DNA of 64,000 nt from an uncultured Phycisphaerales bacterium (lineage in GTDB: Bacteria; Planctomycetota; Phycisphaerae; Tepidisphaerales; Tepidisphaeraceae): assembly GCA_963758525.1 (NCBI GenBank), contig CAVWVQ010000003.1, positions 4,320,001 through 4,384,000 of the forward strand, read 5' to 3'. The position numbers and the translations under genes were made by a program. Below the pieces are notes generated by a model. That model saw only the letters and a list, made by a program, of their open reading frames with translations, had not been told where the DNA came from and did no database searches. Positions within the stretch are counted from its first letter, which is position 1. Each line of letters opens with the position of its first letter. Below are positions 49,294 through 62,557 of the stretch, one piece after another.

Positions 49294-50577
49294 TCAATAC
49301 TGCGGGCCACCGGGGTTAACGTCTTTGTTCCAGAGCGAAATCCCCCCGGCCATGCTCTTCACGTCCTTGAAGCCTGCCTGTCGCAACGCCTGCGTGAAAT
49401 TCATCGATCGGCCGCCGCTCTTGCAATGCACAACGACCTTCTCGCTCGCGTGCGGCTGAAGCTCGCCCAGCCGTTGCGAGAGGTGCTGCAGCGGAATCAA
49501 CTGCGTCCCCTCAATGTGCGTGATCTGGTACTCATTCGGGAGCCGGCAGTCGACAAAAAAGAACTTCTCTCCCTTGTCGAGCATTGCCTTCACCTCGCGC
49601 GGCGTCACTTCCCAATCGGGCTTGAAGGGATAGCCGGGGGGAAGGCCGCGGCTGTCCAGGTTGGACGCCGGCGCTGCGGCGGGGGTCACGGGATTTTTGG
49701 CGTGTTGCACTTCTGCCTCTGTTTCCGCGGCGGACTTGGGATCGAGAATCGGCACGCCGCAAAACTGTTCGTAATCGATCGGCTTGGTAATGGTCGGATG
49801 CTCGCCGCAAACCGGGCAAGCCGGGTCGCGCCGCACCTTGAACGTCTTGAACTCCAGATCGAGCGAGCTGTATGTCGTCAACCGGCCGATCGCGGGCCGC
49901 CCGATGCCGAGAATCAGCTTCACCGTTTCATTGGCCTGCATGCTGCCGACAGTTCCGCAGATGACGCCCAGAACGCCTCCCTCGGCGCAACTCGGCACCG
50001 ACCCGGGATCAGGCGGCTCGGGATACATGCAGCGATAACACGGCCCGGCTTCCTTCGTATCCGGATTCTGCAAATGCGGCGCGAAGACGGTGACCATTCC
50101 TTCAAACCGGAAGATCGAGCCATACACGTTGGGCTTCTTGAGAATCACGCAAGCGTCGTTAACGCAGTAGCGCGTCGGAAAATTGTCGGTGCCGTCGATG
50201 ATGATGTCGTAATCTTTGATGAGATCCAGGACGTTGGAACTGTTGACGACGGTTTTATGCTCGATCAGCTTGAGGTCGGGGTTGAGATCCTTCAGCCGCT
50301 TGCTGGCAGCTTTCACTTTGTCTTCGCCGATGTTGCTGACGCCAAAGAGAATCTGTCGCTGCAGATTGCTCGGGCTGACCACGTCGATGTCCGCCAGGCC
50401 GATGGTCCCAACGCCGGCCGCGGCAAGGTAAAGACTGATCGGACAACCCAGCCCGCCGGCGCCGATGCAGAGCACCTTCGCGGCCAGCAGGCGCTTCTGC
50501 CCTTCCACTCCCACTTCCGGCAGCAGCAGGTGCCGCTTATAGCGGTTGATTTGTTCGGGGCTCAATTGGCTGGCCAT
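49294..50577 (-). CDS. ThiF/MoeB adenylyltransferase with C-terminal rhodanese domain (MoeZ-like)
   Basis: RYKRHLLLPEVG, GAGGLG, SNLQRQ, CYRC/CPVC zinc sites, rhodanese HCKSGGRS. Confidence 0.93.
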   Translation of the reverse strand: MASQLSPEQINRYKRHLLLPEVGVEGQKRLLAAKVLCIGAGGLGCPISLYLAAAGVGTIGLADIDVVSPSNLQRQILFGVSNIGEDKVKAASKRLKDLNPDLKLIEHKTVVNSSNVLDLIKDYDIIIDGTDNFPTRYCVNDACVILKKPNVYGSIFRFEGMVTVFAPHLQNPDTKEAGPCYRCMYPEPPDPGSVPSCAEGGVLGVICGTVGSMQANETVKLILGIGRPAIGRLTTYSSLDLEFKTFKVRRDPACPVCGEHPTITKPIDYEQFCGVPILDPKSAAETEAEVQHAKNPVTPAAAPASNLDSRGLPPGYPFKPDWEVTPREVKAMLDKGEKFFFVDCRLPNEYQITHIEGTQLIPLQHLSQRLGELQPHASEKVVVHCKSGGRSMNFTQALRQAGFKDVKSMAGGISLWNKDVNPGGPQY

Positions 50578-50588
50578 ATATATCTCGC

Positions 50589-50675
50589 AAAACAAGAAAA
50601 CCATGCCGCTGATCGGCATGGCCCTGATACTCACGCGGTCCAGCAGACTCTAGGAGTGCCCGCCGAGTTCGTCAA
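50589..50675 (-). promoter_or_regulatory. Sigma70-like promoter (TTGACG-N17-TAGAGT) followed by a terminator-like hairpin in the MoeZ-like gene leader
   Basis: -35 at 50675-50670, -10 at 50652-50647; 8-bp stem CCATGCCG/CGGCATGG (50601-50621) followed by UUUUCUUGUUUU. Confidence 0.55.
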
Positions 50676-50986
50676 GAAAGCCGATTCTCCGCGGGGCCGG
50701 CACCGTCCGGCACCGCGCCAGGGAGTCAAAAGTTGAGAATCAAAGGTGAATGGACATTCCGAAAGCCAAATGGATTGCCATCCGTTGGTCTTCCTCTCGA
50801 TTGGAAGATCCGCCCTTTACGCATCCCGTCGAACCGACCTTTCAGACGTAAAGGTGTAAGACTCCATTCCCGCGCCACGCCCAGGAAACCGCGATCAGCT
50901 TTACGCTTCTTTACGTTTTTTTACGTTTGCGGGCCGCCCAATCAATGTTGACAAAGTCTGCCTGGCGTACCGCGGCGGCGCGGCGC

Positions 50987-51910
50987 GGGGAAACGGCGAG
51001 CATGCTCGCCGGCTACACGAAGAGATGCGCAGATGCGAAAAAACCCGGAATCCGGTCCCGTCGTTCCTCTTTTCCCCGTGTAGCCGGTGGGCATGCCCAC
51101 CGGTTTCCCCCTTCCGACCTGTCGTCTCCGCCCCTGAAAATTCACGGCGAGCATGCCTGTCGGCTACACTGAAGAGAGAATGGTCCGCTGGTATCACGCG
51201 ATCTTCAGCGCTTACGGATTCTGGCTTCCGAACGATCCGCGGGGGTCGTGGTCGGACTTTGTGGGGTCGTGGGAGCTGTTGAAATTTGGGTGCGCAACCA
51301 CGACGGGCGAGAAGCGGTCGCTCGCGGCGGTAGCGCATGACGCGGATGTGCGCCGGAGGGCGAAATTAGCGCTGAAATATCCGCCGGTGCGGTTCAACGA
51401 CGCCCAGCGTCTCGCGATCGGAGCAGGCATCACCCAGGCCTGCGCCGAATCGAAGATCATTCTTCACGCCTGTGCGATTGGCTTCGATCACGTTCACATC
51501 GTCGCCGCCCGACATACGAAACGCGTGGAGCAGATCGTCGGACAATTGAAGGGCCGATCCACGCAGCACATGGGGGCGGCTGGATGTCATCCGATGCAGG
51601 CGGCGCTCCCGTCGACACGACCGCTGCCTACACCGTGGTCCGAGGGGTGCTGGTCCGTCTTTATCAATGACCACGAGCAACTCAGATGTGCGATCAAATA
51701 CGTCGAGCGCCATCCGCAAAAGGAAGGCCTCCCAGCGCAACGATGGACCTTCGTCCGTTCCGTCTCCTACGTGTAGCCGGTGGGCATGCCCACCGTTTTC
51801 TTTGGGTGTGGAAGACGTCGGACGGGGGGAAACGGCGAGCATGCTCGCCGGCTACACAAAAATACTTGCTGATTTCCCACTCTTCGTTTAGCCGGCGGGC
51901 ATGCCCGCCG
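50987..51910. repeat. Six GTAG-type REP copies flanking the RAYT gene
   Basis: GTGTAGCCGGTGGGCATGCCCACCG or the inverse CGGCGAGCATGCTCGCCGGCTACAC at ~50994, 51078, 51145, 51771, 51833, 51887. Confidence 0.9.
51180..51776 (+). mobile_element. REP-associated tyrosine transposase (RAYT, IS200/IS605 Y1 superfamily)
   Basis: YGFWLPNDPRGSWS, HUH motif DHVHI, catalytic Tyr in IKYVERHP; its stop codon is the TAG of a REP. Confidence 0.85.
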
Positions 51911-51945
51911 TGGTCCTTCGCGTTGAAAATCTTTTCACCGCCGTA

Positions 51946-51990
51946 TTGACAAGATTTCCATTCCGAACGTATACCTAACATTGTACGAAC
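51946..51990 (+). promoter_or_regulatory. imuA promoter with candidate LexA-type operator GAAC-N7-TAAC-N7-GAAC
   Basis: TTGACA at 51946-51951, TATACC at 51970; GAAC 51965, TAAC 51976 and GAAC 51987 at 11-bp spacing. Confidence 0.6.
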
Positions 51991-51994
51991 AGAG

Positions 51995-52975
51995 ATGAGC
52001 CATGCGATTTGTTTCCTGTCACGACGGCAAGCTTCAGGTGTTAAGTCCGCAGGAGTTCCGCGCCCGACCGCCCAGGCTTTCACCACCGGCTTGGCACCGC
52101 TGGACGCACTGGCGCCAGGAGGGGCGTTTGCCCGGGGAGCGGTGCATGAAATTCTCACCGCCCCCGAGCATGGCGCCGCCCTTTTTTTTGCGACGCTCCT
52201 GGCCGGAGCGTCGGCAGCGCCGCCGGGAGGCACGGGGGATGGGGAAGGCACGAAGGCAGTCGCCGCGGCGACTAAACTGCGGCACCAAGGCACAGGGGGA
52301 AGGATGGAGGAGGGATTCAGAGAGGGTTCAGGGTTCAGGGTTCAGACTTCAGCACAAAAATCCCCTTCCTCCCCTTCGTGCCGCAGTTTAGTCGCCGCGG
52401 CGACTGCCTCTGTGCCTTCGTGCCTTCCCCCTGATCCCCCTTCGTGCCTTGGTGCCTCCGTGCCTTCGTGCCGGCGATTCATCTGCTGGTGCGATCCCAC
52501 GCGGGAAATTTATCCGCCGGCGTTGGCGAGTCATGGCATCGCATTGACGCATTTATTTCTTCTGCATCCGAACGGCCCGCGCGATCTGCTCTGGGCGATT
52601 TCTGAATCTTTGCGATGCAAGGGGGTCGCCGCCGTCGTGGCCGCTCCGCCACGTCTCTCGCGCGTCATGGCGCGCCGTCTTCAGCTTTCCGCCGAGCGCG
52701 GCGGCGGCGTCGGATTGCTGCTGCGCAGCACCAACGCGCCGGGAATTGATTGCTATGCCGCCGCCACCCGCTGGCTGGTGCGCCCCCAGGCTGGGGAGCG
52801 CACCGTGCAACGATGGAACGTTCAACTGATTCACGGTCATGGAGGATGTATCGGACAGACCGTCATCCTGGAGGTAAGCCGTGAAAACCATTCTGTGCGT
52901 GCACTTGAATCGCTGGCCAATCGACCGATGGAGAAGAGCACAGGACAAACTTCGGGCGTTGCCAAGGCCTCGTGA
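51995..52975 (+). CDS. imuA: ImuA (RecA-like mutagenesis protein) with an in-frame hairpin insertion (~52221-52476)
   Basis: TGLAPLDAL.PGG..RGAVHEI, WCDP..IYPPAL, DLLWA..ESLRC, ARRLQLSAERGG, AAATRW. Confidence 0.88.
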   Translation: MSHAICFLSRRQASGVKSAGVPRPTAQAFTTGLAPLDALAPGGAFARGAVHEILTAPEHGAALFFATLLAGASAAPPGGTGDGEGTKAVAAATKLRHQGTGGRMEEGFREGSGFRVQTSAQKSPSSPSCRSLVAAATASVPSCLPPDPPSCLGASVPSCRRFICWCDPTREIYPPALASHGIALTHLFLLHPNGPRDLLWAISESLRCKGVAAVVAAPPRLSRVMARRLQLSAERGGGVGLLLRSTNAPGIDCYAAATRWLVRPQAGERTVQRWNVQLIHGHGGCIGQTVILEVSRENHSVRALESLANRPMEKSTGQTSGVAKAS

Positions 52976-54873
52976 TTGCCAAGCCGTTCCTCCTCAAAAA
53001 CAAATTCAAAACTTCCGGAACGCCACCCCCTCTCCCGGTACTCCGGGAGAGGGCAGGGGTGAGGGTGATTTCGAGCACCAACGGCACTTGACGTTCCAAA
53101 TCACCCTCACCCCAACCCTCTCCCGGAGTACCAGGAGAGGGGACAATCAAGCAGCCTCTCTCCTCAATACACATTCTTCCCAAGTTCCCCTGGTCATCGT
53201 TCGCACCGTCGCCGATCGGCAGGTGATTGTTTCTCTGTGCGACCTGGCCGCCCAGCGGGGAATTCGCCGGGGGATGACGCTCACGCAGGCCCGGGCGCTG
53301 TGCGCCGATGTCGAGCATGCCGAACACGACCCGCCGGCTGACCGTCGGGCGCTGGAGGCGCTGGGTCGCTGGCTCACGCGTTTTACGCCGACTGTGGCGC
53401 TGGACGCCAGTGAATCCGCCGACGGCATTTTCCTCGACATCACCGGCTGCGACCGGCTGTTTGGAAGCGTTGAAAATATTGTCCATCAGGTGATCGACGC
53501 CTTGGCTCGCCTGCGCATCAGCGCCCGCGTCGCAGTTGCTCCCACGCCTGGGGCGGCCTGGGCCTTGGCTGTCGCGGGGGAAAACGGCGATATCGCGTCC
53601 ATCGACACGCTGGCGGATATGCTTGCGCCGCTTCCTCCTGCCGCATTGCGCATCAGCGACGATCTTGCCGCGGCATTGCATCACCTGGGGCTGGTCCGCA
53701 TCCATCAGGTGATCGACCTTCCCCGCGGCCTGCTCCCGGTACGTTTCGGTCCCGAATTGCTTTTGCGCATTGATCAGGCACTGGGCCGAATCTCCGAGCC
53801 GCTGGTTCCGCTCCAATATCTTCCCCCCATCATTGCGCGTATGGATTTTGACGGCCGAGTCTCTTCGCTCGAAGCCATCTGGGCAGTCTTTCAGCAATTG
53901 ATCGGGCAGATCATCGCGCAGCTGACGCATCGCGGCTGCGGCGCTCGCCGGCTCGATATCGAGTTGCTCCATCTCCACGAGCCACCGGTCCGCAAAAGCA
54001 TTTTTCTCTCCCGTCCCTCGCGCGATGCGGTGAATTTGTTTAATTTATTTCGGTGTGGGATGGAGGAGGGGAGGGAAGGGACAAAGGGACAGAGGGACAA
54101 AGGGACAAAGGGAAGACAAGAAGGCACGAAGGCAGTCGTGGCGACTGCCTCCGTGCCTTCGTGCCTCTCTTCCCCTCCCCCTTTGTCCCTTTCCCCTTCC
54201 CTCTCCGACGACGGTTACAGCGGCATGATCCTCCATGTCCCCTTATTTGAGCCAATTTCCGATCAGCAACTCGGCCTTCTCGGCCAGGAAGAATATGACG
54301 GGCAACTCGAGCTCGATCGTCTCATCGAACGGCTGCGGATTCGCCTGGGAGAACAGACCGTCATGAGCACCCAATTAACCGAATCCTACATCCCCGAGCG
54401 CGCCTGGAGCGCCTGCGCGAGAAAGCAGGGCAGTAAAGCAGTTGAAAGGAAAGAAGAATTCCCACTCTAAAGCATCCCCTTCCTCCCCTTCGTGCCGCAG
54501 TTTAGTCGCCGCGGCGACTGCCTTCGTGCCTTGGTGCCTTCCCCCTGATTCCCCTTCGTCCCTTGGTCCCTTTGTCCCTTTGTCCCTTCCTCCTCCCATC
54601 CGTCCCCTTCACTTATTCCTTCATCCCATCGAAATCCGCGTGATGGTCAGCCCGTCGGATGATGCCGAAGGGCAGCCCGCCGCGTTTACGCATGAGGGGC
54701 AGGTCCGCACGATCGTTCACGCCGTCGGCCCCGAGCGTATTGCCGGGCGGTGGTGGGACGGCCACGACAAAACCCGCGATTACTTCGACGTGGAGGACGC
54801 CAGTGCCAGAAGGTTCTGGCTCTTCCGCGTGCGGGAAACCGGGCGGTGGTATTTGCATGGAGGGTTTGAGTGA
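52881..54873 (+). CDS. imuB: ImuB (inactive Y-family polymerase), three repeat insertions; frameshift at ~54415
   Basis: GIRRGMTLTQARAL, RFTPTV, DGIFLDITGC..LFG, LIERLRIRLG, PERAW; C-terminal RPLHL..GPERIAGRWW..RDYF..FWLFR..WYLHG lies in ORF 54442..54873. Confidence 0.88.
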
Positions 54874-54879
54874 AGAAGC

Positions 54880-55146
54880 CCGGGGAGAAGTCAGGAGCAA
54901 GAAGCCAGAAGTAAGAAGCAGGAATTGCAAATTGAGGATTGCAAATTGCAAAATTGAAGGGCGGCAATTTGAGATTTGAGATATTTGAGATTTGAAATAT
55001 TTGAGTCCTGGTGACCCAAAGGAGTAAGAACCATAAGGAGACAAAAAAGCCCCGTCCCCCAAAATTTGCATTTTGCAATCCTCAATTTGCATTTTGCAAT
55101 TCCCTCTTCTGACTCCTGGCTTCTGGCTCCTGGCTTCTGACTCCCT
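54880..55146. repeat. Composite inverted 7-mer arrays (AGAAGCC/GGCTTCT, GCAAATT/AATTTGC, ATTTGAG) between imuB and dnaE2
   Basis: Left arm 54885-54956 is the reverse complement of right arm 55062-55145; a further copy of the left arm lies inside dnaE2 at ~55636-55722. Confidence 0.85.
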
Positions 55147-55159
55147 ACTTCTCCAAAAA

Positions 55160-58100
55160 ATGCCCGAAGCTCCCAACCCCAAACTTCGCGAAGCTCCGCC
55201 GCCAGCATTGAAATCGGTGGCTCCCTCCTCCTGCGCCTATGCGGAGCTGGACGTCAAAACCAACTTCTCTTTTCTCCGCGGCGCTTCGCATGCCGACGAA
55301 CTGGTCTATCGTGCCGCGGAGCTGGGATATCGCGCGATCGGCATCACCGACATCAACTCTCTCGCCGGTGTCGTTCGTGCCCATGACGCGGCCAAGGAAG
55401 TCGGCCTGAAGCTTCTCGTCGGCTCCCGCCTCACGTTTTCCGACGCTCCCGACCTGCTCGTCTGGGCCAGCAATCGCGCGGGATACGCCAGGCTTTGCAG
55501 AATGCTAACCCTGGGAAAACGCCGGACCGAAAAAGGAGAATGCGATTTAAGGCTGGAGGATTTTTTGAATGATAATGAGGGGTTGGTGGCGGCCGTGGAG
55601 GGGGATCAAAGAGAGGCACGAAGGGAAGGAAGGAAGCAGGAGTCAGGAGCCAGAAGCCAGAAGTCAGAAGAGGAAACCGAAGATTGCAAATTGAGGATTG
55701 CAAATTGCAAATTGCAAATTGAAGAACACCTCCTCTCCCCTTCCTCCCCCTTCGTGCCGCAGCAAGGTCCCGCGCGCGCGGGATGCCTTCGTGCCTCCGT
55801 GCCTGCATTAATTTCCCTCCGCTCCTCCCTCGGCTCGCGTCTCTCGCTGATTGCCGCCTGCTCTTATGGCTCGGACGATTCCTCACATCTGCGCCGGTTG
55901 GCGGAGCTGTCGCGCCAATGCCATATTCCTCTTCTGGCGACCAATGCGGTTCACTATCACGACCCGTCCCGCCGGCGGCTGCAGGACGTGCTCACGTGCG
56001 TTCGCCATGGCTGCACCATCGACGAAGCGGGCTTTCGTCTGTTTCCAAACGGCGAACGCTATCTCAAATCGCCGCTGCAGATGCATCGGCTCTTTGCCGA
56101 CTATCCGCAGGCGCTGCGGCGGGGGATCGAGATTGCCGAGCAATGCGACTTTCAACTCGATTCGCTACGCTATGAATATCCCGACGAACTGGTTCCGGCC
56201 GGGAAATCTCCCATCGAACATCTGGGCAATCTCGCCTGGGCCGGGGCGGCTGAGCACTATCCAGCCGGCATTCCTCAAAAAGTGCGCGATCTGCTCAACC
56301 ACGAGCTGACGCTGATCGCACAACTCAAATTCGAAGCCTATTTTCTCACCGTCCATGATCTGGTGTGCTACGCGCGATCGCGCGGCATCCTCTGTCAGGG
56401 GCGCGGATCGGCCGCCAATTCCGCGGTCTGTTTCTGCATCGGGGTCACGTCGGTCAACCCTGTCGAAGTCGATTTGCTTTTCGAGCGGTTTATCAGTGCC
56501 GCCCGCAATGAGCCGCCGGACATTGACATCGATTTCGAACACGAGCGCCGCGAGGAGGTGATTCAATACATCTACGAAAAGTATGGCCGCGAGCGCGCCG
56601 GGATGACCGCCGAGGTAATCACCTATCGCGGTCGCTCCGCGGTCCGCGACGTGGGCAAAGCGATGGGCCTCACGCTTGACATGGTCGACACGATGGCCTC
56701 GAAGCTCGACTGGTGGCATCGCGGCGTGCTGAGCGAGCCGCAACTGCAGGAGTGCGGCCTGGACCCCGCGGATCGGACGATTCGTCGAGTCATTGCGCTT
56801 GCCACCGAGTTGCTGGGTTTTCCCCGCCACTTGAGCCAGCACGTCGGAGGGATGGTGATGACGCGCGGACCGTTGTGCGAACTGGTGCCGATTGAAAATG
56901 CGAGCATGCCGGATCGAACTGTCATTGAGTGGGATAAGAATGACATTGACTCGCTGGGGATTTTGAAAGTTGATGTGCTGGCGTTGGGAATGCTGACGTG
57001 TATTTCGAAGGCGCTTAAGTTGATCAGTTGGACAAATGTCAGAGACGAAGGGACAAAGGGACAAAGGGACGAAGGGGCGGAGGGGGGAAGGGACGAAGGG
57101 ACAGAGGGACGAAGGGACAAAGGGGCGGAGGGGGGAAGGGACGAAGGGACAGAGGGACGAAGAGACAAAGGGGAATGTGGGGAGGGGGATAAAGAGGCGA
57201 TATCTGATGCACAAAGTCAATACGTTTCGGGATCTGGTTGCTTGGCAACGAGGGATGGAACTGGCGCAAACGACGTATTCAGTGATCCTGAGGATGCCAC
57301 AAGCGGAGAGGTTTCGTCTTTTCAACCAGATGTGGCGGGCCGCGTACTCGATCCCGTCCAACATCGCGGAGGGATACGCCCGACAATCCCGCCCGGATTA
57401 TTTGAAGTTTCTGCGGATTGCTCGCGGTTCACTGGCAGAGCTGTCTACTCAAGTCGAATTAGCAATCAATCTTCGAATTATTACTCCGTGTGCACAACTG
57501 CAGAACCTGGAGAATCTGCTGATGGAGGAGGATCGAATTCTACAGGCGCTGATTATGAGCCTCCAACGCAAAACGCGACAGGAAGAGCAAATGAGGGGAG
57601 GGGCAAAGGGACAAAGGGACTAAGGGACGGAGGGACAGAGGGTAAGGCAAATCCCTCCGCCCCTTTGTCCCTGTGTCCCTCTGTCCCTTCGTCCCTCCCT
57701 TCCTCTGCCCCTTCGTCCCTTCTCCCTCCCTTGTCCCTCTCCTCCTTCCGTCCCACCGATCCCGCTGTCTACCAAATGATGTCGAATGCCGACACGGTCG
57801 GCGTTTTCCAGATTGAGAGCCGGGCGCAGATGTCCATGCTGCCGCGGCTGCGACCCAACTGCTTTTACGATCTCGTGATCGAAGTCGCGATCGTGCGCCC
57901 AGGCCCAATTCAGGGAAACATGGTTCACCCCTATTTGCGACGCCGTTGCGGCGAAGAAAAAGTCACATTCCCCAATGAAAAACTGCGCGAAGTGTTGAGC
58001 AAAACCCTCGGGGTTCCGCTTTTTCAGGAACAGGCGATGCGCATTGCAATGGTCGCGGCGGGTTTTACCGCCGACGAGGCGGACAAGTTGCCGCGCCATG

Positions 58101-59468
58101 GCAGCATGGCGTCGGACCAGCGCGCTGGAGGCATTTCATCAGAAAATCGTCCAAGGCATGCTTGCCAATGGGTACGAACAGGAATTCGCCGAACAGTGTT
58201 TCGATCAGATCAAGGGGTTCGGCGAATATGGATTTCCCGAGAGTCACGCCGCGTCGTTTGCGCTGCTGGTGTATGTCTCAGCCTGGATCAAACGTTACCA
58301 TCCCGCGGCCTTCGCGGCGGCGCTGATCAACAGCCAGCCGATGGGTTTTTATATGCCTGCACAAATCGTGCGCGATGCCAAAGAGCATGGGGTGGAAGTG
58401 CTTCCCGTGGATGTGAACCGGAGCCAATGGGATTGCACATTGGAGGGGGGAAGGGACGAAGGGACAGAGGGACATAGGGACGAAGGGACGAAGGGACAAA
58501 GGGACAAAGAGGTAGAGGGACAAAGGGACGAAGGGACAGAGGGACATAGGGACAAATGTGCAGAGGGAACAGATGGAGGGATGAAAGGACAAAGTGCGAA
58601 GATGACATGGGGGGCCGGGGGACCAGTATTGCGATTGGGGTTCCGTCTCATCAAGGGATTTCGCGAAACGCATGCACAACAGATTGCCGAAGCCCGTGCA
58701 AAATGGAAATGTTTTATTTCCATCGCGCAATTGCATCGGACGACGCGGCTGCCTGTCGCATCGTTGCGCATTCTTGCTGAAGCCGATGCGTTTGGATCAT
58801 TGGGAATCACCCGCCGTGAGGCGTTGTGGGAGGTGCTGGAGTTGAAGGATGAGGAGGCAGGGTTGTTTGAAGGGGGGGAGGGAGAAGGGACAAAGGGACA
58901 GAGGGACAAAGGGACAAAGTGCAAAGACGCCATTCCCGCTGCCCCTTTGTCCCTTCGTCCCTTCGTCCCTTCGTCCCTTCTCCCTCCCCTGCCCGCTGCC
59001 CCTTTGTCCCTTTGTCCCTCAGTCCCTTCGTCCCTTCTCCCTCCCATGCCCCTCGGCCAGGAAGTCATGACCGATTACGCGACGGCCGGCCTTTCGCTCA
59101 AGCAACATCCTGTTGCGCTGTTGCGCGATGAACTGCAGCGCAGAAAGATCATTCGTTCCATAGACCTGGATCCGTTACGCAATGGGCGATGGGTTAGCGT
59201 CGCGGGATTGGTGCTGATCCGGCAGCGGCCTGGGACGGCATCAGGCATCGTCTTCGAAACCCTTGAAGACGAAACCGGCATCGTGAATCTGATTGTGAAG
59301 CCGGATATTTACGAGCGCTACCGCCGCGCCGCCCGGCATGCGGGACTGCTCCAGGCCGAGGGATATCTGCAGAAACAGGGACAGGTCGTTCACGTGGTCG
59401 CCAAACGGCTCTTCGACTTGAGCGATTTGCTGCAAGGCCACGAATTTCAGTCGCGGGATTTTCATTAG
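55160..59468 (+). CDS. dnaE2: Error-prone DNA polymerase DnaE2 (ImuC), four in-frame repeat insertions; frameshift at ~58092
   Basis: YAEL..KTNFSFLRGAS PHP domain, QGRGSAANS, PPDIDIDFEH, HLSQHVGG, KVDVLALGML, GVFQIESRAQ, YGFPESHA, RQRPGTASG, C-terminal SRDFH. Confidence 0.93.
57207..57623 (+). CDS. Four-helix-bundle protein (23S rRNA intervening-sequence protein / Avd-like family), nested in the +1 frame inside dnaE2
   Basis: TFRDLVAWQRGMEL..Y..MP..ERF.L..QMWRAAYSIPSNIAEGYAR...FLRIARGSLAELSTQ; AAAGAGG RBS upstream of the ATG. Confidence 0.9.
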   Translation: MHKVNTFRDLVAWQRGMELAQTTYSVILRMPQAERFRLFNQMWRAAYSIPSNIAEGYARQSRPDYLKFLRIARGSLAELSTQVELAINLRIITPCAQLQNLENLLMEEDRILQALIMSLQRKTRQEEQMRGGAKGQRD

Positions 59469-59474
59469 AAGGAG

Positions 59475-59670
59475 AGAAACGTGAAGACGTGAAGACGTGA
59501 AACGTGAAACGTGAAACGTGAAACGTGAAACGTGAAGACGTGACAATGCGAATCCGCCCTCTCACGTTTCACGTCTTCACGTTTCAGGTCCCGTTCCACG
59601 TTCCAATCACCGGCACTGACCGCCCTCTCACGTCTTCACGTCTTCACCCCTCCCGTCACGTTCCACGTTC
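59475..59670. repeat. Inverted pair of (GTGAAAC/GTGAAGAC)n arrays downstream of dnaE2
   Basis: About 9 ACGTGAA(G/A) units followed by TCACGTTTCACGTCTTCAC arrays. Confidence 0.88.
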
Positions 59671-59792
59671 CAATCACCAGTGCCCGTCTTTATCGCCCCC
59701 GTTGCCGGCAACTTATGTGGACTTGGGCATCTGACGATGAACCCGATACAGTCTGGTCCGGCGTGGCGTTTGCAGGCAATCTATAATTCATA

Positions 59793-60899
59793 ATGACCGC
59801 GTTCGTGGAGTCGTGTGTCGTCACCGCAGCCGATTCGGCAGCGGCGGCGGTGCGCAAGTTGCGCGGACGGCCGCATGCCAGCAAATTGCTGCGCCTTTTG
59901 GCCCACAAGAAGAACATTCTGATCACCACCCATCGGCACCCCGACCCCGATGCCCTTGCCAGCGGGGTCGCCATGATGGCGCTCCTGTCGCAGAAACTGC
60001 CCGCCAGCGTGGTCAGCATGTCGGTCAAGGGGCAGATGGCCAGCGGGCTCAATGATGCGTTTGTGCGTTACACGGACCTCAAGCTTGTGCCATGGGATGA
60101 GGCCGCGCTCCCCAATTATGACGCGATCATCCTTCTCGATACGCAGCCCGCGTTTGCCTTCAGCCCGCTGCCGGTCGGGACAACGCCGCTGGCGGTCATC
60201 GATCATCATCGCGGGCGGGGACGGCGGCCCAACGTTCCGTTCTGCGACATTCGCCCCGAAGTGGGCGCTGCGGGCTCGATCGTCTTCAGCTACTTCATGG
60301 AGCTGGAAGTTCCCATCAAACCCGATCTGGCCGCAACACTGCTGTATGGCATCGAGTCCGACCTGGCGGGCGCCGCGGGGTTTCCCGGCGAACTCGATAA
60401 CATCGCCCTCTCGAGCCTCACGCTGATCGCCGATCCGCGCAAGCTCTATCGCATGCGCTACGTCGATCTGCCGCGCAGCTACTACATCGCTTACGCAAAT
60501 GGCCTGAACCATGCCGTGGTGTATGACAACCTGCTGATCTCCCACCTCGAATCGATCGAATCGCTCGAAACCCCGGCGGTGATCGCGGACTTCCTGCTCC
60601 GGCTCGATAAAGTGGATTGGACGATGGTCAGCGCCGTTCACGATGCGAAGCTGATCGTCAGCATTCGCACCAGCAACAGCAAAATCTCCGCCGCCGACAT
60701 TGCCCGGCGGCTCGTTCGCAAAGTAGGGGAGGGCGGCGGTCATCGCGCCAAAGCCGGCGCCTACATCAATATGGACACTGCCAATCCCGCCGAGATCGAA
60801 AAGTATCGGTCGCTCCTTCGCAAAAGGTTTTTGAGGCTATTGCATACCAGCTCCACCCGGGCGCAGAAACTGGTGCCTTTGCCGGGGAAGGCCGAGTGA
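59793..60899 (+). CDS. DHH/DHHA1 family phosphoesterase (NrnA-like)
   Basis: HRHPDPDAL, LDT, IDHH, GIESD, GGGHRAKAG. Confidence 0.92.
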   Translation: MTAFVESCVVTAADSAAAAVRKLRGRPHASKLLRLLAHKKNILITTHRHPDPDALASGVAMMALLSQKLPASVVSMSVKGQMASGLNDAFVRYTDLKLVPWDEAALPNYDAIILLDTQPAFAFSPLPVGTTPLAVIDHHRGRGRRPNVPFCDIRPEVGAAGSIVFSYFMELEVPIKPDLAATLLYGIESDLAGAAGFPGELDNIALSSLTLIADPRKLYRMRYVDLPRSYYIAYANGLNHAVVYDNLLISHLESIESLETPAVIADFLLRLDKVDWTMVSAVHDAKLIVSIRTSNSKISAADIARRLVRKVGEGGGHRAKAGAYINMDTANPAEIEKYRSLLRKRFLRLLHTSSTRAQKLVPLPGKAE

Positions 60900-60928
60900 C
60901 GAAATCCGGATGAGATTGCGCAATTCGG

Positions 60929-62557
60929 CTATCCCCCCAGCGAACGCGTGACGATCTGCTGCGCCTGTTCAACGATCATCTGCAAGTGCTCCGCGCTCTG
61001 AAAGCTCTCGGCGTAGATCTTGTAAATATTTTCGGTGCCGGAGGGACGCGCGGCGAACCAGCCGGACGCCGTCGTTACCTTGAGCCCTCCGATGGACGCG
61101 TGGTTGCCAGGGGCTTGAGTGAGCTTGGCGGTGATCGTTTCTCCGGCCAATTCGATTGCGGTAACGGCTTGGGGGGTCAGCTTTTTAAACGCGGCTTTTT
61201 GTGCGGGGGTGGCTGGAGCGTCGATGCGGGTGTAGTAGGGCGTGCCGAATCGTTGGGTCAGTTCGGAGTAGTGCTGGCCTGGATCTTTGCCGGTGCGGGC
61301 GGTGATCTCGGCGGCAAGCAGATTGAGGATGATTCCGTCCTTGTCGGTGGACCAGACGGTGCCGTCGGTGCGGAGGAAGCTCGCTCCGGCGCTTTCTTCG
61401 CCGCCGAAGCAGAATCGGCCGGTGTAGAGGCCGTCGGCAAACCACTTGAAGCCGACGGGAACCTCGCAGAGCGTGCGATGCAGATCGGCAACGACGCGAT
61501 CGATCATGCTGCTGCTCACCAGCGTTTTGCCCACGGCAGCGGACGTGGGCCAGTGCGGACGATTCTGCAGGAGATACTGGATCGCAACGGCAAGGTAATG
61601 ATTGGGGTTCATCAGGCCGGCAGATGGTGTGACGATGCCATGGCGATCCGAGTCGGGATCGTTGCCGAAGGCGACCTGATAGTCGTCCTTCAGTTTCACA
61701 AGACCGGCCATCGCGTAAGGGCTTGAGCAATCCATGCGGATCTTGCCGTCGTGATCGACGGTCATGAAGGAGAACGTCGGGTCGATCTTTGAATTGACGA
61801 TCGCCAGGTCAATTCTGTAGCGGTCGCGGATCGGCCCCCAATACGTGACCGAGGCTCCGCCCAGAGGATCGACGCCCAGCTTGACGCCGGAAGAACGAAT
61901 CGCTGGCAGGTCGACGACATTCCGCAGGTCTTCAACATAAGGCGTGACAAAGTCATATCGCTCGATCGACGAGACGTCTGAAGTGCGCTTCACATCGCGA
62001 TTGGATTGCTGGAGGAGCGCGTTGGCCCGGTCCTGGACCCAATTCGTGACATCGGCGTCGGCTGGTCCGCCGTTCGGCGGGTTGTACTTGAATCCGCCAT
62101 CGGCCGGCGGATTGTGCGACGGGGTGATGATGATTCCATCCGCCAGCCCCGCGGTTTTCCCGCGGTTGTGGGTCAGTATCGCGTGTGAAATCACGGGAGT
62201 CGGCGTCGGCTCGTCGTCGCGCGCGACGCGGACACTCACGCCATTGGCCGCCAGCACTTCCAGCGCCGTTCGCTGCGCCGGCGCCGAGAGCGCGTGGGTG
62301 TCTTTCCCCATCATCACCGGGCCGTCGATTCCCCTGGATTTGCGGTATTCGCAGATTGCCTGCGAGATCGCCAGGATGTGCGCTTCGGTGAACGTGCCGT
62401 CGAGCGACGTGCCGCGATGGCCGCTGGTACCGAAGCTCACGCGCTGCGCGGGATCGGACATGTCGGGCAACGTTTGGTAATACTTTCGATCGAGCGCAGC
62501 AACGTCGATGAGAAGACTTGCGGGAGCGAGCTTACCGGCGAGAGGTGAGAGGGGCAT
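60929..62557 (-). CDS. pgm: Phosphoglucomutase (alpha-D-glucose-1,6-bisphosphate-dependent)
   Basis: [32 protein letters not shown]. Confidence 0.96.

Follow-up and report, generated by a model that had tools for sequence, protein, structure and literature searches.

A four-helix-bundle gene nested out of frame in dnaE2 of an uncultured Phycisphaerales bacterium, within a repeat-bounded and apparently mobile cassette

We have analyzed a 64,000-nucleotide stretch of DNA (the window) from an uncultured Phycisphaerales bacterium, in which an intact gene for a small four-helix-bundle protein (the passenger) is nested out of frame within dnaE2, the gene for an error-prone DNA polymerase (the host). 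The passenger and the inverted repeats around it make up an apparently mobile cassette that resembles the intervening sequences (IVSs) of rRNA, lies within a protein-coding gene, and leaves both reading frames intact. A preliminary description of the locus had proposed as much, and is supported on this point. Judging from the sequences compared, the cassette is probably tolerated within the polymerase gene as a translated loop; the small gene is likely a member of a mobile repeat family that has not been described before.

The cassette in the window

All features of the cassette are on the forward (+) strand. The DnaE2 segments KVDVLALGMLTCISKALKLIS and DPAVYQMMSNADTVGVFQIES flank a purine 8-mer array, an ORF of 138 aa and the complementary array. 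The left arm (57041..57173) is a purine-rich array of the 8-mer AGGGACRR, free of stops in the host frame, and the right arm (57652..57747) is a pyrimidine-rich, reverse-complement array. A Shine-Dalgarno-like GAGG (57194..57197) is located 9 nt upstream of the ATG of the nested ORF (57207..57623), which is in the +1 frame relative to dnaE2; both the ribosome-binding site and the intact ORF had been pointed out in the preliminary description. A second purine array (57599..57646) overlaps the 3' end of the ORF and can pair locally with the right arm, so that the 3' end of the cassette forms a complete ORF-less hairpin unit, as would be expected if the cassette had recombined into such a hairpin. 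Recomputation of the stem returned the pairing first reported, 63 of 69 positions between 57064-57132 and 57653-57721, with four G-U, one A-C and one A-G among the six differences on the mRNA strand. The segment 57041-57747, whose folding had been proposed as a check, is predicted to form a very stable structure (-317 kcal/mol; z -8.25 against 20 shuffles). The claim that the entire insert, its dual-coded part included, is free of stops in the dnaE2 frame was borne out; the third frame has many stops. Read in the host frame (57029..57750), the insert specifies about 230-240 aa rich in G, S, E, R, D and P.

In HMM searches the nested ORF scored above the cut-offs of both families suggested for it, with 103.6 bits to PF05635, the 23S_rRNA_IVP family (cut-off 33.8), and 106.8 bits to TIGR02436 (cut-off 24); it is related to PDB 2GSC (E 5e-21). 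We know of no catalytic function for this four-helix-bundle protein. The proposed relationship to Avd of diversity-generating retroelements (DGRs) holds in part: PF05635 four-helix-bundle proteins are described as homologous to DGR Avd in the portion of PMC10053308 available to us, and the ORF matches the Avd models weakly, but its scores remain under their cut-offs (PF22296, 23.2 against 40; NF033474, 26.1 against 80). Neither a template or variable repeat nor an adjacent reverse transcriptase (RT) was seen, and none of the six RT matches falls within the window.

An intron or intein identity was rejected. The Rfam scan found no group I or group II intron core, its hairpin matches being sub-threshold and none of them to an intron family; it gave no rRNA match in 50000-61000, the host gene being dnaE2. 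No Hint (intein) domain was found in a Pfam search of the 1134-aa host ORF, and, again unlike an intein, the insert is predicted to be unstructured and its host-frame reading is unconserved. No sigma-70 promoter was found in 51700-59700, with a model that is uninformative for this phylum. In metagenomes a near-identical window allele was not found, the best match having 61% identity.

Recurrence of nested cassettes in dnaE genes

In a first look at the best 30 dnaE2 loci from 61 genomes, five, the window's own included, had an ORF at the same place and in the same register. A host-based survey of the family identified 109 dnaE2 loci in 102 of 141 genomes, 99 of them with both flanking motifs. 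Among these 99 scorable loops are the empty alleles that the preliminary description had hoped an alignment would reveal (59 loops), together with 26 that have other inserts of >200 nt, mostly hairpins, and 14 that have the ORF. The median inter-motif length is 156 nt in empty alleles, as against 834 in the window. Thirteen of the 14 ORF-bearing loops are in frame and stop-free, 84 of the other 85 are in frame, and insert lengths are multiples of three in 13 of 14 complete family alleles; the sole exception among the 14, L234 (= L062), has a frame change within the left arm. The ORF or its start is also visible in 4 of the 10 unscorable dnaE2 loci.

A passenger-based search covered 401 genomes of the class with host-frame and passenger alignments, plus one GTDB scan. 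The 80 regions fetched comprise the passenger-search rows to E 6e-36, minus three at contig edges, plus two long-frame matches. This search returned 188 distinct ORFs of at least 100 bits, and 40 of these lie between dnaE halves. Thirty of the nested loci came from the host-frame search, which is biased to stop-free matches (the passenger ranking and the host survey are not so biased), and the source genomes are related, so that the counts overstate independence. Another seven ORFs are nested in long frames outside dnaE, of which four belong to DNA methylases, one to an amidohydrolase and two have no Pfam match.

Most nested cassettes occupy the post-palm loop of DnaE2; those of L042 and L049 occupy the post-palm loop of DnaE1. 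Other sites are the loop between PHP and palm (L044, L045, L051) and the HhH region (L066), and in G258 and G252 a single gene contains two cassettes. A metagenome scan placed 7 of 80 loci in dnaE, two of the seven matching the G224 allele. The filled dnaE1 of G383 (97% complete) is that genome's sole match to PF07733, and no dnaE1-type copy other than the filled one was found in G337 or G171. Nested cassettes recur in a core enzyme family, probably with sole replicative polymerases among their hosts. We found no account of PF05635 genes nested in coding frames in the literature covered, which included few subscription papers and no supplements.

Selection on both reading frames

The preliminary description had suggested a survey for genes of this type nested in other coding sequences with the frame preserved. 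All 40 of the dnaE-nested ORFs are free of stops in the host frame; the corresponding frame is open in 13 of 96 GC-matched non-dnaE ORFs, a comparison set that includes some nested ones. A T-ending passenger codon followed by a codon starting with AA, AG or GA makes a stop in the host frame, and this combination occurs in 0/786 cases in nested ORFs and 230/1841 in free ones, while the frequency of third-position T elsewhere is 0.204 and 0.227, respectively. In the metagenome set 7 of 7 dnaE-nested ORFs are stop-free, compared with 1 of 73 others. The arms and linkers of 32 cassettes contain no host-frame stop and 155 stops in the other two frames. Only the -1 frame of the passenger has few enough stops to be cleared, so that all nested copies share one register.

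The passenger frame is under purifying selection, with a mean pS of 0.73 and a mean pN of 0.31. The host-frame reading of the insert has pN above pS and its sequence is unconserved, and the DnaE2 flanks have dN/dS values of 0.04-0.12 in 8 of 9 pairs, one being saturated. An in-frame start near the start of the domain is present in 31 of the 32 nested cassettes, most with a Shine-Dalgarno-like tract. The passenger is interrupted by an internal stop in L039 and L044, with the host frame still open.

Phylogeny and movement of the cassette

The trees of cassette and host conflict, and the presence of the cassette is patchy. In a quickly built tree from 109 DnaE2 flanks (10 loci with stops or short flanks were dropped, and filled loci from the class level were added on account of their being filled), the filled state changes 17 times, 12 of these changes being forced by supported branches; as the tree is unrooted, losses and gains are not told apart. 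Close sisters differ in filling (L027/L028, L030/L039, L012/L258 and L234/L239), and the closest filled/empty pair has a dS of 0.48. A single DnaE2 clade (100/99) contains cassettes that belong to three subclades of the passenger (p-AU 9e-6); two other AU tests reject (0.019 and 0.010) and one does not (0.075), with clades named after the trees had been seen and with short trees (121 and 275 columns). L057, which has a long branch, was left out of the 28-row trees. The Mantel correlation of cassette and host distances is 0.34 across the class and 0.11, not significant, within the family. Given the congruence across the class, ancient presence with many losses accounts for part of the distribution; a long-standing association, allelic exchange and movement from site to site each play a part.

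How the cassette moves is the least certain part of our reading. The likeliest route would be at the DNA level: ORF-less hairpins of the same unit, scattered through each genome, already occupy tolerant loops, matching arms would let a full cassette enter or replace them through recombination or gene conversion, and the conserved flanks would let it pass between dnaE alleles.

A benefit to the host might also hold the cassette in place: the passenger could be a protein partner co-translated with the polymerase, or the stem could be a regulatory RNase III site limiting DnaE2 output. In the passenger tree all 45 dnaE-nested genes fall within one 52-row clade (SH-aLRT 96), all nested passengers are on the sense strand, and their starts and purifying selection are as a useful protein would have them. 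We nevertheless consider this unlikely. In the family 85 of 99 scorable alleles do without the cassette and close sisters differ; the passenger clade also takes in 5 genes that stand free and 2 that lie in unrelated hosts; the window passenger's nearest relative is itself free-standing, namely its sister from Humisphaera, which shares the arms and has a single stop in the -1 frame; some passengers decay (L039 and L044, above); and the stem is without the RNA-strand bias considered below.

Fate of the insert in expression

The preliminary description offered three fates for the insert: translation as a loop, bypass, or processing at the RNA level. The first is favoured and the other two gain no support, because frame and stops are policed, passengers decay while the host frame remains open, and the stems lack an enrichment of G-U. 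Had the insert been excised and ligated, or bypassed by the ribosome, the polymerase would be made without it, and a very stable stem does enclose the ORF, with an anatomy like that of the 23S rRNA IVSs that are cut by RNase III (PMC4990558, as far as its text was available). Such removal would free the insert of frame and stop constraints, and since both are kept, in ORF and arms alike, it is disfavoured. The same source describes IVS excision as lacking ligation, no intron family reached the Rfam threshold, and arm lengths and ends vary freely. The G-U excess put forward as a sign of an RNA-level stem stands for the window (4 of 6 mismatches) but is not general: the stems of 32 nested cassettes have 39 G-U and 41 A-C mismatches and those of free cassettes 57 and 60, so that there is no mRNA-strand bias and G-U enrichment was rejected as a mark of this kind. 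We regard removal of the insert as very improbable.

The insertion site aligns with about residues 573-585 of E. coli DnaE, just past the last palm strand and some 20 residues C-terminal of the last catalytic aspartate. The length of the loop at this site varies among empty alleles. In an AlphaFold model of a 616-aa fragment (pTM 0.57), residues 290-494 are unstructured (pLDDT <50, no secondary structure), the palm is confident and the fingers downstream of the insert are moderately so. On the favoured reading, ribosomes would proceed in the polymerase frame straight across the cassette and yield a DnaE2 with a predicted disordered loop of about 230 residues, and the passenger would likely be made by internal initiation in the +1 frame. 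The cassette likely persists through such host-frame read-through in a surface loop. ORF-less arms of the same families also lie in frame in this genome's pheS, valS-type synthetase, rimO-type, purL, radA-type and priA genes; their presence in such ordinary genes suggests that reading through hairpins is likely routine here.

The host gene, its operon and the quality of the assembly

The 5' part of dnaE2 (55160..58090, +, within ORF 55073-58477; NF004225, PF02811/PF07733/PF17657) encodes PHP, palm (PPDIDIDF, KVDVL) and the start of the fingers, and holds the cassette. The 3' part (58091..59468, +), with fingers, HhH and OB, is in the next frame, and a likely assembly indel separates the two. 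The gene matches NF004225 with 945.7 bits (cut-off 939). Upstream in the same operon (51995..54873, +) are imuA (51995-52975), imuB (52881-54470) and a further ORF (54442-54873); PF00817 is above its cut-off and NF033429 under its own. Besides the cassette, dnaE2 contains three ORF-less inserts, all in frame and on the + strand: 7- and 8-mer arrays in the PHP domain (55612..55850), an AGGGACRR array in the HhH region (58445..58600) and an AGGGACRR hairpin preceding the OB domain (58870..59040). Other genomes (L066, L351) have a full cassette at the site of the HhH-region array. Both imuA and imuB contain in-frame ORF-less hairpin inserts of the same repeat families.

The insert could belong to a dispensable, decaying dnaE2 in which the frame is open by chance, or could be an assembly artefact. 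The frame of dnaE2 changes at about 58088-58095, some 340 nt 3' of the insert, so that the full polymerase is not one ORF here; the gene has four separate repeat inserts; and independent reads spanning the insert are absent, the one DNA sequencing run containing 0.06 of the window's words and its contigs missing both the insert and the frame change. For the window ORF alone, an open -1 frame has a chance of about 0.04. The chance that this explanation is correct is nonetheless very slight. Frame changes affect 18 of 111 ordinary genes in this 6-contig assembly when compared with a short-read congener (1 per 7.8 kb), and a frameshift is apparent in 3 of its 8 PF05635 matches as well, which makes an assembly indel the simplest reading of the change near 58090; at this rate one frame change is expected about 4 times in 10 for a 4.3-kb gene. 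The flanks of the window's dnaE2 have a dN/dS of 0.076 and its catalytic motifs are intact. Moreover, 40 loci from many independent assemblies share site and register, and decay or artefact could apply to the window copy alone, leaving the class-wide pattern untouched.

Arms as members of genome-wide repeat families

The arm units differ between loci, and left and right arms match within a locus: an arm's own partner is its best match at 17 of 32 loci and among the top four at 26. Inverted arms flank 59 of 82 non-dnaE class-level genes and none of 74 control flanks. What is new is that the unit of each cassette's arms also makes up ORF-less hairpins, a family dispersed over the entire genome in question. 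With overlapping occurrences counted, exact tandem matches in G000, G029, G060, G165 and G383 (in that order, which is also the order of the units of their own cassettes), number 236, 0, 1, 0 and 0 for AGGGACRR; 0, 25, 13, 0 and 0 for AGCGACRR; 378, 12, 14, 4 and 0 for AGGCACRR; 0, 0, 0, 53 and 0 for AGGGATTR; and 0, 0, 0, 0 and 53 for AGTGGCAR. The match of unit and genome is not exclusive, AGGCACRR being commonest in G000, where no PF05635 gene with exactly this unit was found. Five of the eight PF05635 genes of G000 have units that occur at 23-89 loci, and three have units at 0-2.

The purine arm comes first in 55 of 55 pairs (104 against 19 under looser rules), and ORF-less pairs share inner sequence mosaically (125 spacer pairs scoring at least 32). 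That the arrays are synthesised in place, with a purine unit added to both 3' ends of a break in the manner of telomerase, an Avd-like protein as RT cofactor and the ORF captured between, is hardly credible: the purine-first polarity would be the geometry of head-to-head telomere fusions, the passenger weakly resembles Avd (for the homology see PMC10053308, consulted in part), the DGR reverse transcriptase is reported to need Avd (10.1101/2023.10.23.563531, in the portion available) and the genome has six RT matches, but the non-repeat spacers shared among ORF-less copies point to copying and weaken this scheme, fixed polarity is expected of any inverted-repeat element family, and no RT was seen linked to a cassette. 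A RAYT-like gene at 51153 was considered as a mobiliser and rejected, its palindromes being unrelated to the cassette arms, though it might act in trans.

More speculatively, PF05635 genes may be the autonomous members of an undescribed, nuclease-less class of mobile DNA, each paired with its own 7-8-mer inverted array and driving the spread of ORF-less hairpins of that unit across the genome; one lineage would then be a specialist of DNA polymerase III alpha genes, nested in their +1 frame and present even in the replicative polymerase. We are inclined to doubt this, although it would give a role to a large family and would turn the IVSs of 23S rRNA into a single case among the landing sites of a general element. 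The most valuable question is whether a repeat family is spread by its own passenger protein. The pairing of gene and repeat makes two matters testable, the role of PF05635 proteins and the means by which short tandem-repeat hairpins are dispersed, along with the IVSs of rRNA, whose origin is called unclear in the available part of PMC4990558. Bacterial genes that are fully nested on the same strand and selected in both frames are rare; an annotation pipeline would list only one of such a pair. If the insert is read through, DnaE tolerates disordered loops of 150-250 residues beside the palm.

Comparison with known systems

IVSs with an ORF are described from 23S rRNA of Coxiella (helix 45, with S23p) and of Leptospira (PMC4990558, in part). 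The cassette has in common with them the PF05635/2GSC protein family, a stem of terminal inverted repeats around the ORF and short tandem repeats in the arms (heptamers in the IVSs). It is not located in 16S or 23S rRNA, however: its host is an mRNA, in which cutting of the IVS kind without ligation would break the reading frame. Stops are kept out of the host frame of the cassette, and purifying selection acts on its passenger; the Coxiella ORF, by contrast, is said in the same account to be decaying. PF05635 genes have also been reported, in sources seen in part, from rRNA insertions of CPR and from cas loci; the related literature includes PMC8700078, likewise consulted in part.

The closest logic, in our view, is that of the ShiLan domain and the Pacc40 insertion, in which HNH genes lie out of frame within DNA methylase genes of phages (PMC11855218, in the part available). 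Both systems have a stop-free host frame, a gene hidden in another frame, no known intron or intein and a proposed loop in the host protein. The ShiLan passenger is a nuclease able to explain homing and its host is dispensable, whereas our nested ORF is not an HNH homing endonuclease, having only PF05635/bAvd-type matches, and the cassette reaches dnaE1. It also has arms and Shine-Dalgarno-like tracts; the accessible text of PMC11855218 mentions neither Shine-Dalgarno sequences nor inverted repeats, nor does it speak of a helix bundle.

Rickettsia palindromic elements and in-frame MITEs are in-frame palindromes in unrelated, often housekeeping genes that are kept in the protein (PMC10969869, from its available part), and the ORF-less arms in pheS, valS and purL are like them. 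The Rickettsia elements are about 150 bp long, with one conserved peptide and no independent gene; the cassettes consist of 7-8-mer arrays, which have different units in different genomes and can enclose an entire gene. In the RAYT (TnpA-REP) system a single-copy gene is flanked by repeats abundant in the same genome (10.1101/119735, in part), and the cassettes likewise have a flanking repeat that is abundant genome-wide, one family per gene, with a diagonal pattern of units in five genomes. In the cited work this pattern serves to define RAYT genes. The nested ORF lacks a Y1_Tnp domain, whereas RAYT is described in that source as an HUH nuclease whose REPINs are extragenic. The repeats of the cassettes are tandem arrays, and the gene-bearing copy itself lies inside a coding frame.

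The dnaE2 loop and its surroundings

The palm-fingers loop of dnaE2, the site just after the palm where the four-helix-bundle cassette of the window lies, is a general insertion hotspot. Palindromes that carry no ORF and belong to many unrelated families occupy this loop at loci L005, L008, L016, L223-L229, L233, L236, L252 and L265, nearly all of them in frame. Two other dnaE2 genes have in-frame deletions: in L272 (genome G414) the deletion fuses the loop hairpin to the region preceding the OB domain, and in L041 (G341) about 55 residues are missing immediately after the cassette. These deletions reflect either repeat-driven loss, which would represent a cost of the insertions, or assembly collapse.

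Repeats are also found around dnaE2 in the window. The intergenic segments on both sides of the gene (54874-55140 and 59480-59660) contain nested hairpins built from several 7-mer families (of the CAGAAGT, GCAAATT, TTTGAGA, GAAACGT and AATCACC types). Upstream, imuB (52881-54873) appears as two ORFs, with the break at a repeat insert near 54442-54590; this is either a frameshift or a natural split. Further upstream of imuA-imuB-dnaE2 lies a RAYT-like Y1 transposase gene (51153-51776), flanked by its own palindromes. These comprise two 23-nt motifs, each with 12 matches in the genome at two or fewer mismatches, and tblastn found 8 more matches to the gene itself in this genome (G000).

Repeat arrays and reverse transcriptases elsewhere in the genome

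Arrays of the cassette arm unit AGGGACRR or of AGGCACRR, without an ORF, lie in frame within six coding genes of G000: pheS, the genes for a valS-type synthetase and a rimO-type enzyme, purL, a radA-type gene and priA (L329, L321, L324, L333, L336 and L340). At two places, C3:883815-884168 and C3:582461-582694, AGGGACRR forms a very long array (30-40 units) on one side only, with no close partner arm among the matches listed. The genome also encodes four near-identical reverse transcriptase frames of 466 aa (C1:202459, C1:207753, C3:3034309 and C2:269151) and two others.

Other passengers and hosts

A 138-aa ORF at G000 C3:275369-275910, with what we take to be a GxxExxY-like motif, is flanked by inverted CGCGAAGA arrays, the unit of which is present at 35 loci. 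This ORF is a passenger of a second type, arranged in the same way as the four-helix-bundle cassettes. Nested four-helix-bundle genes themselves extend beyond Planctomycetota, to Clostridia (L094) and Treponema (L126); these two, with L085, L220 and L075, lie inside DNA methylases and an amidohydrolase, in the same register as those nested in dnaE.
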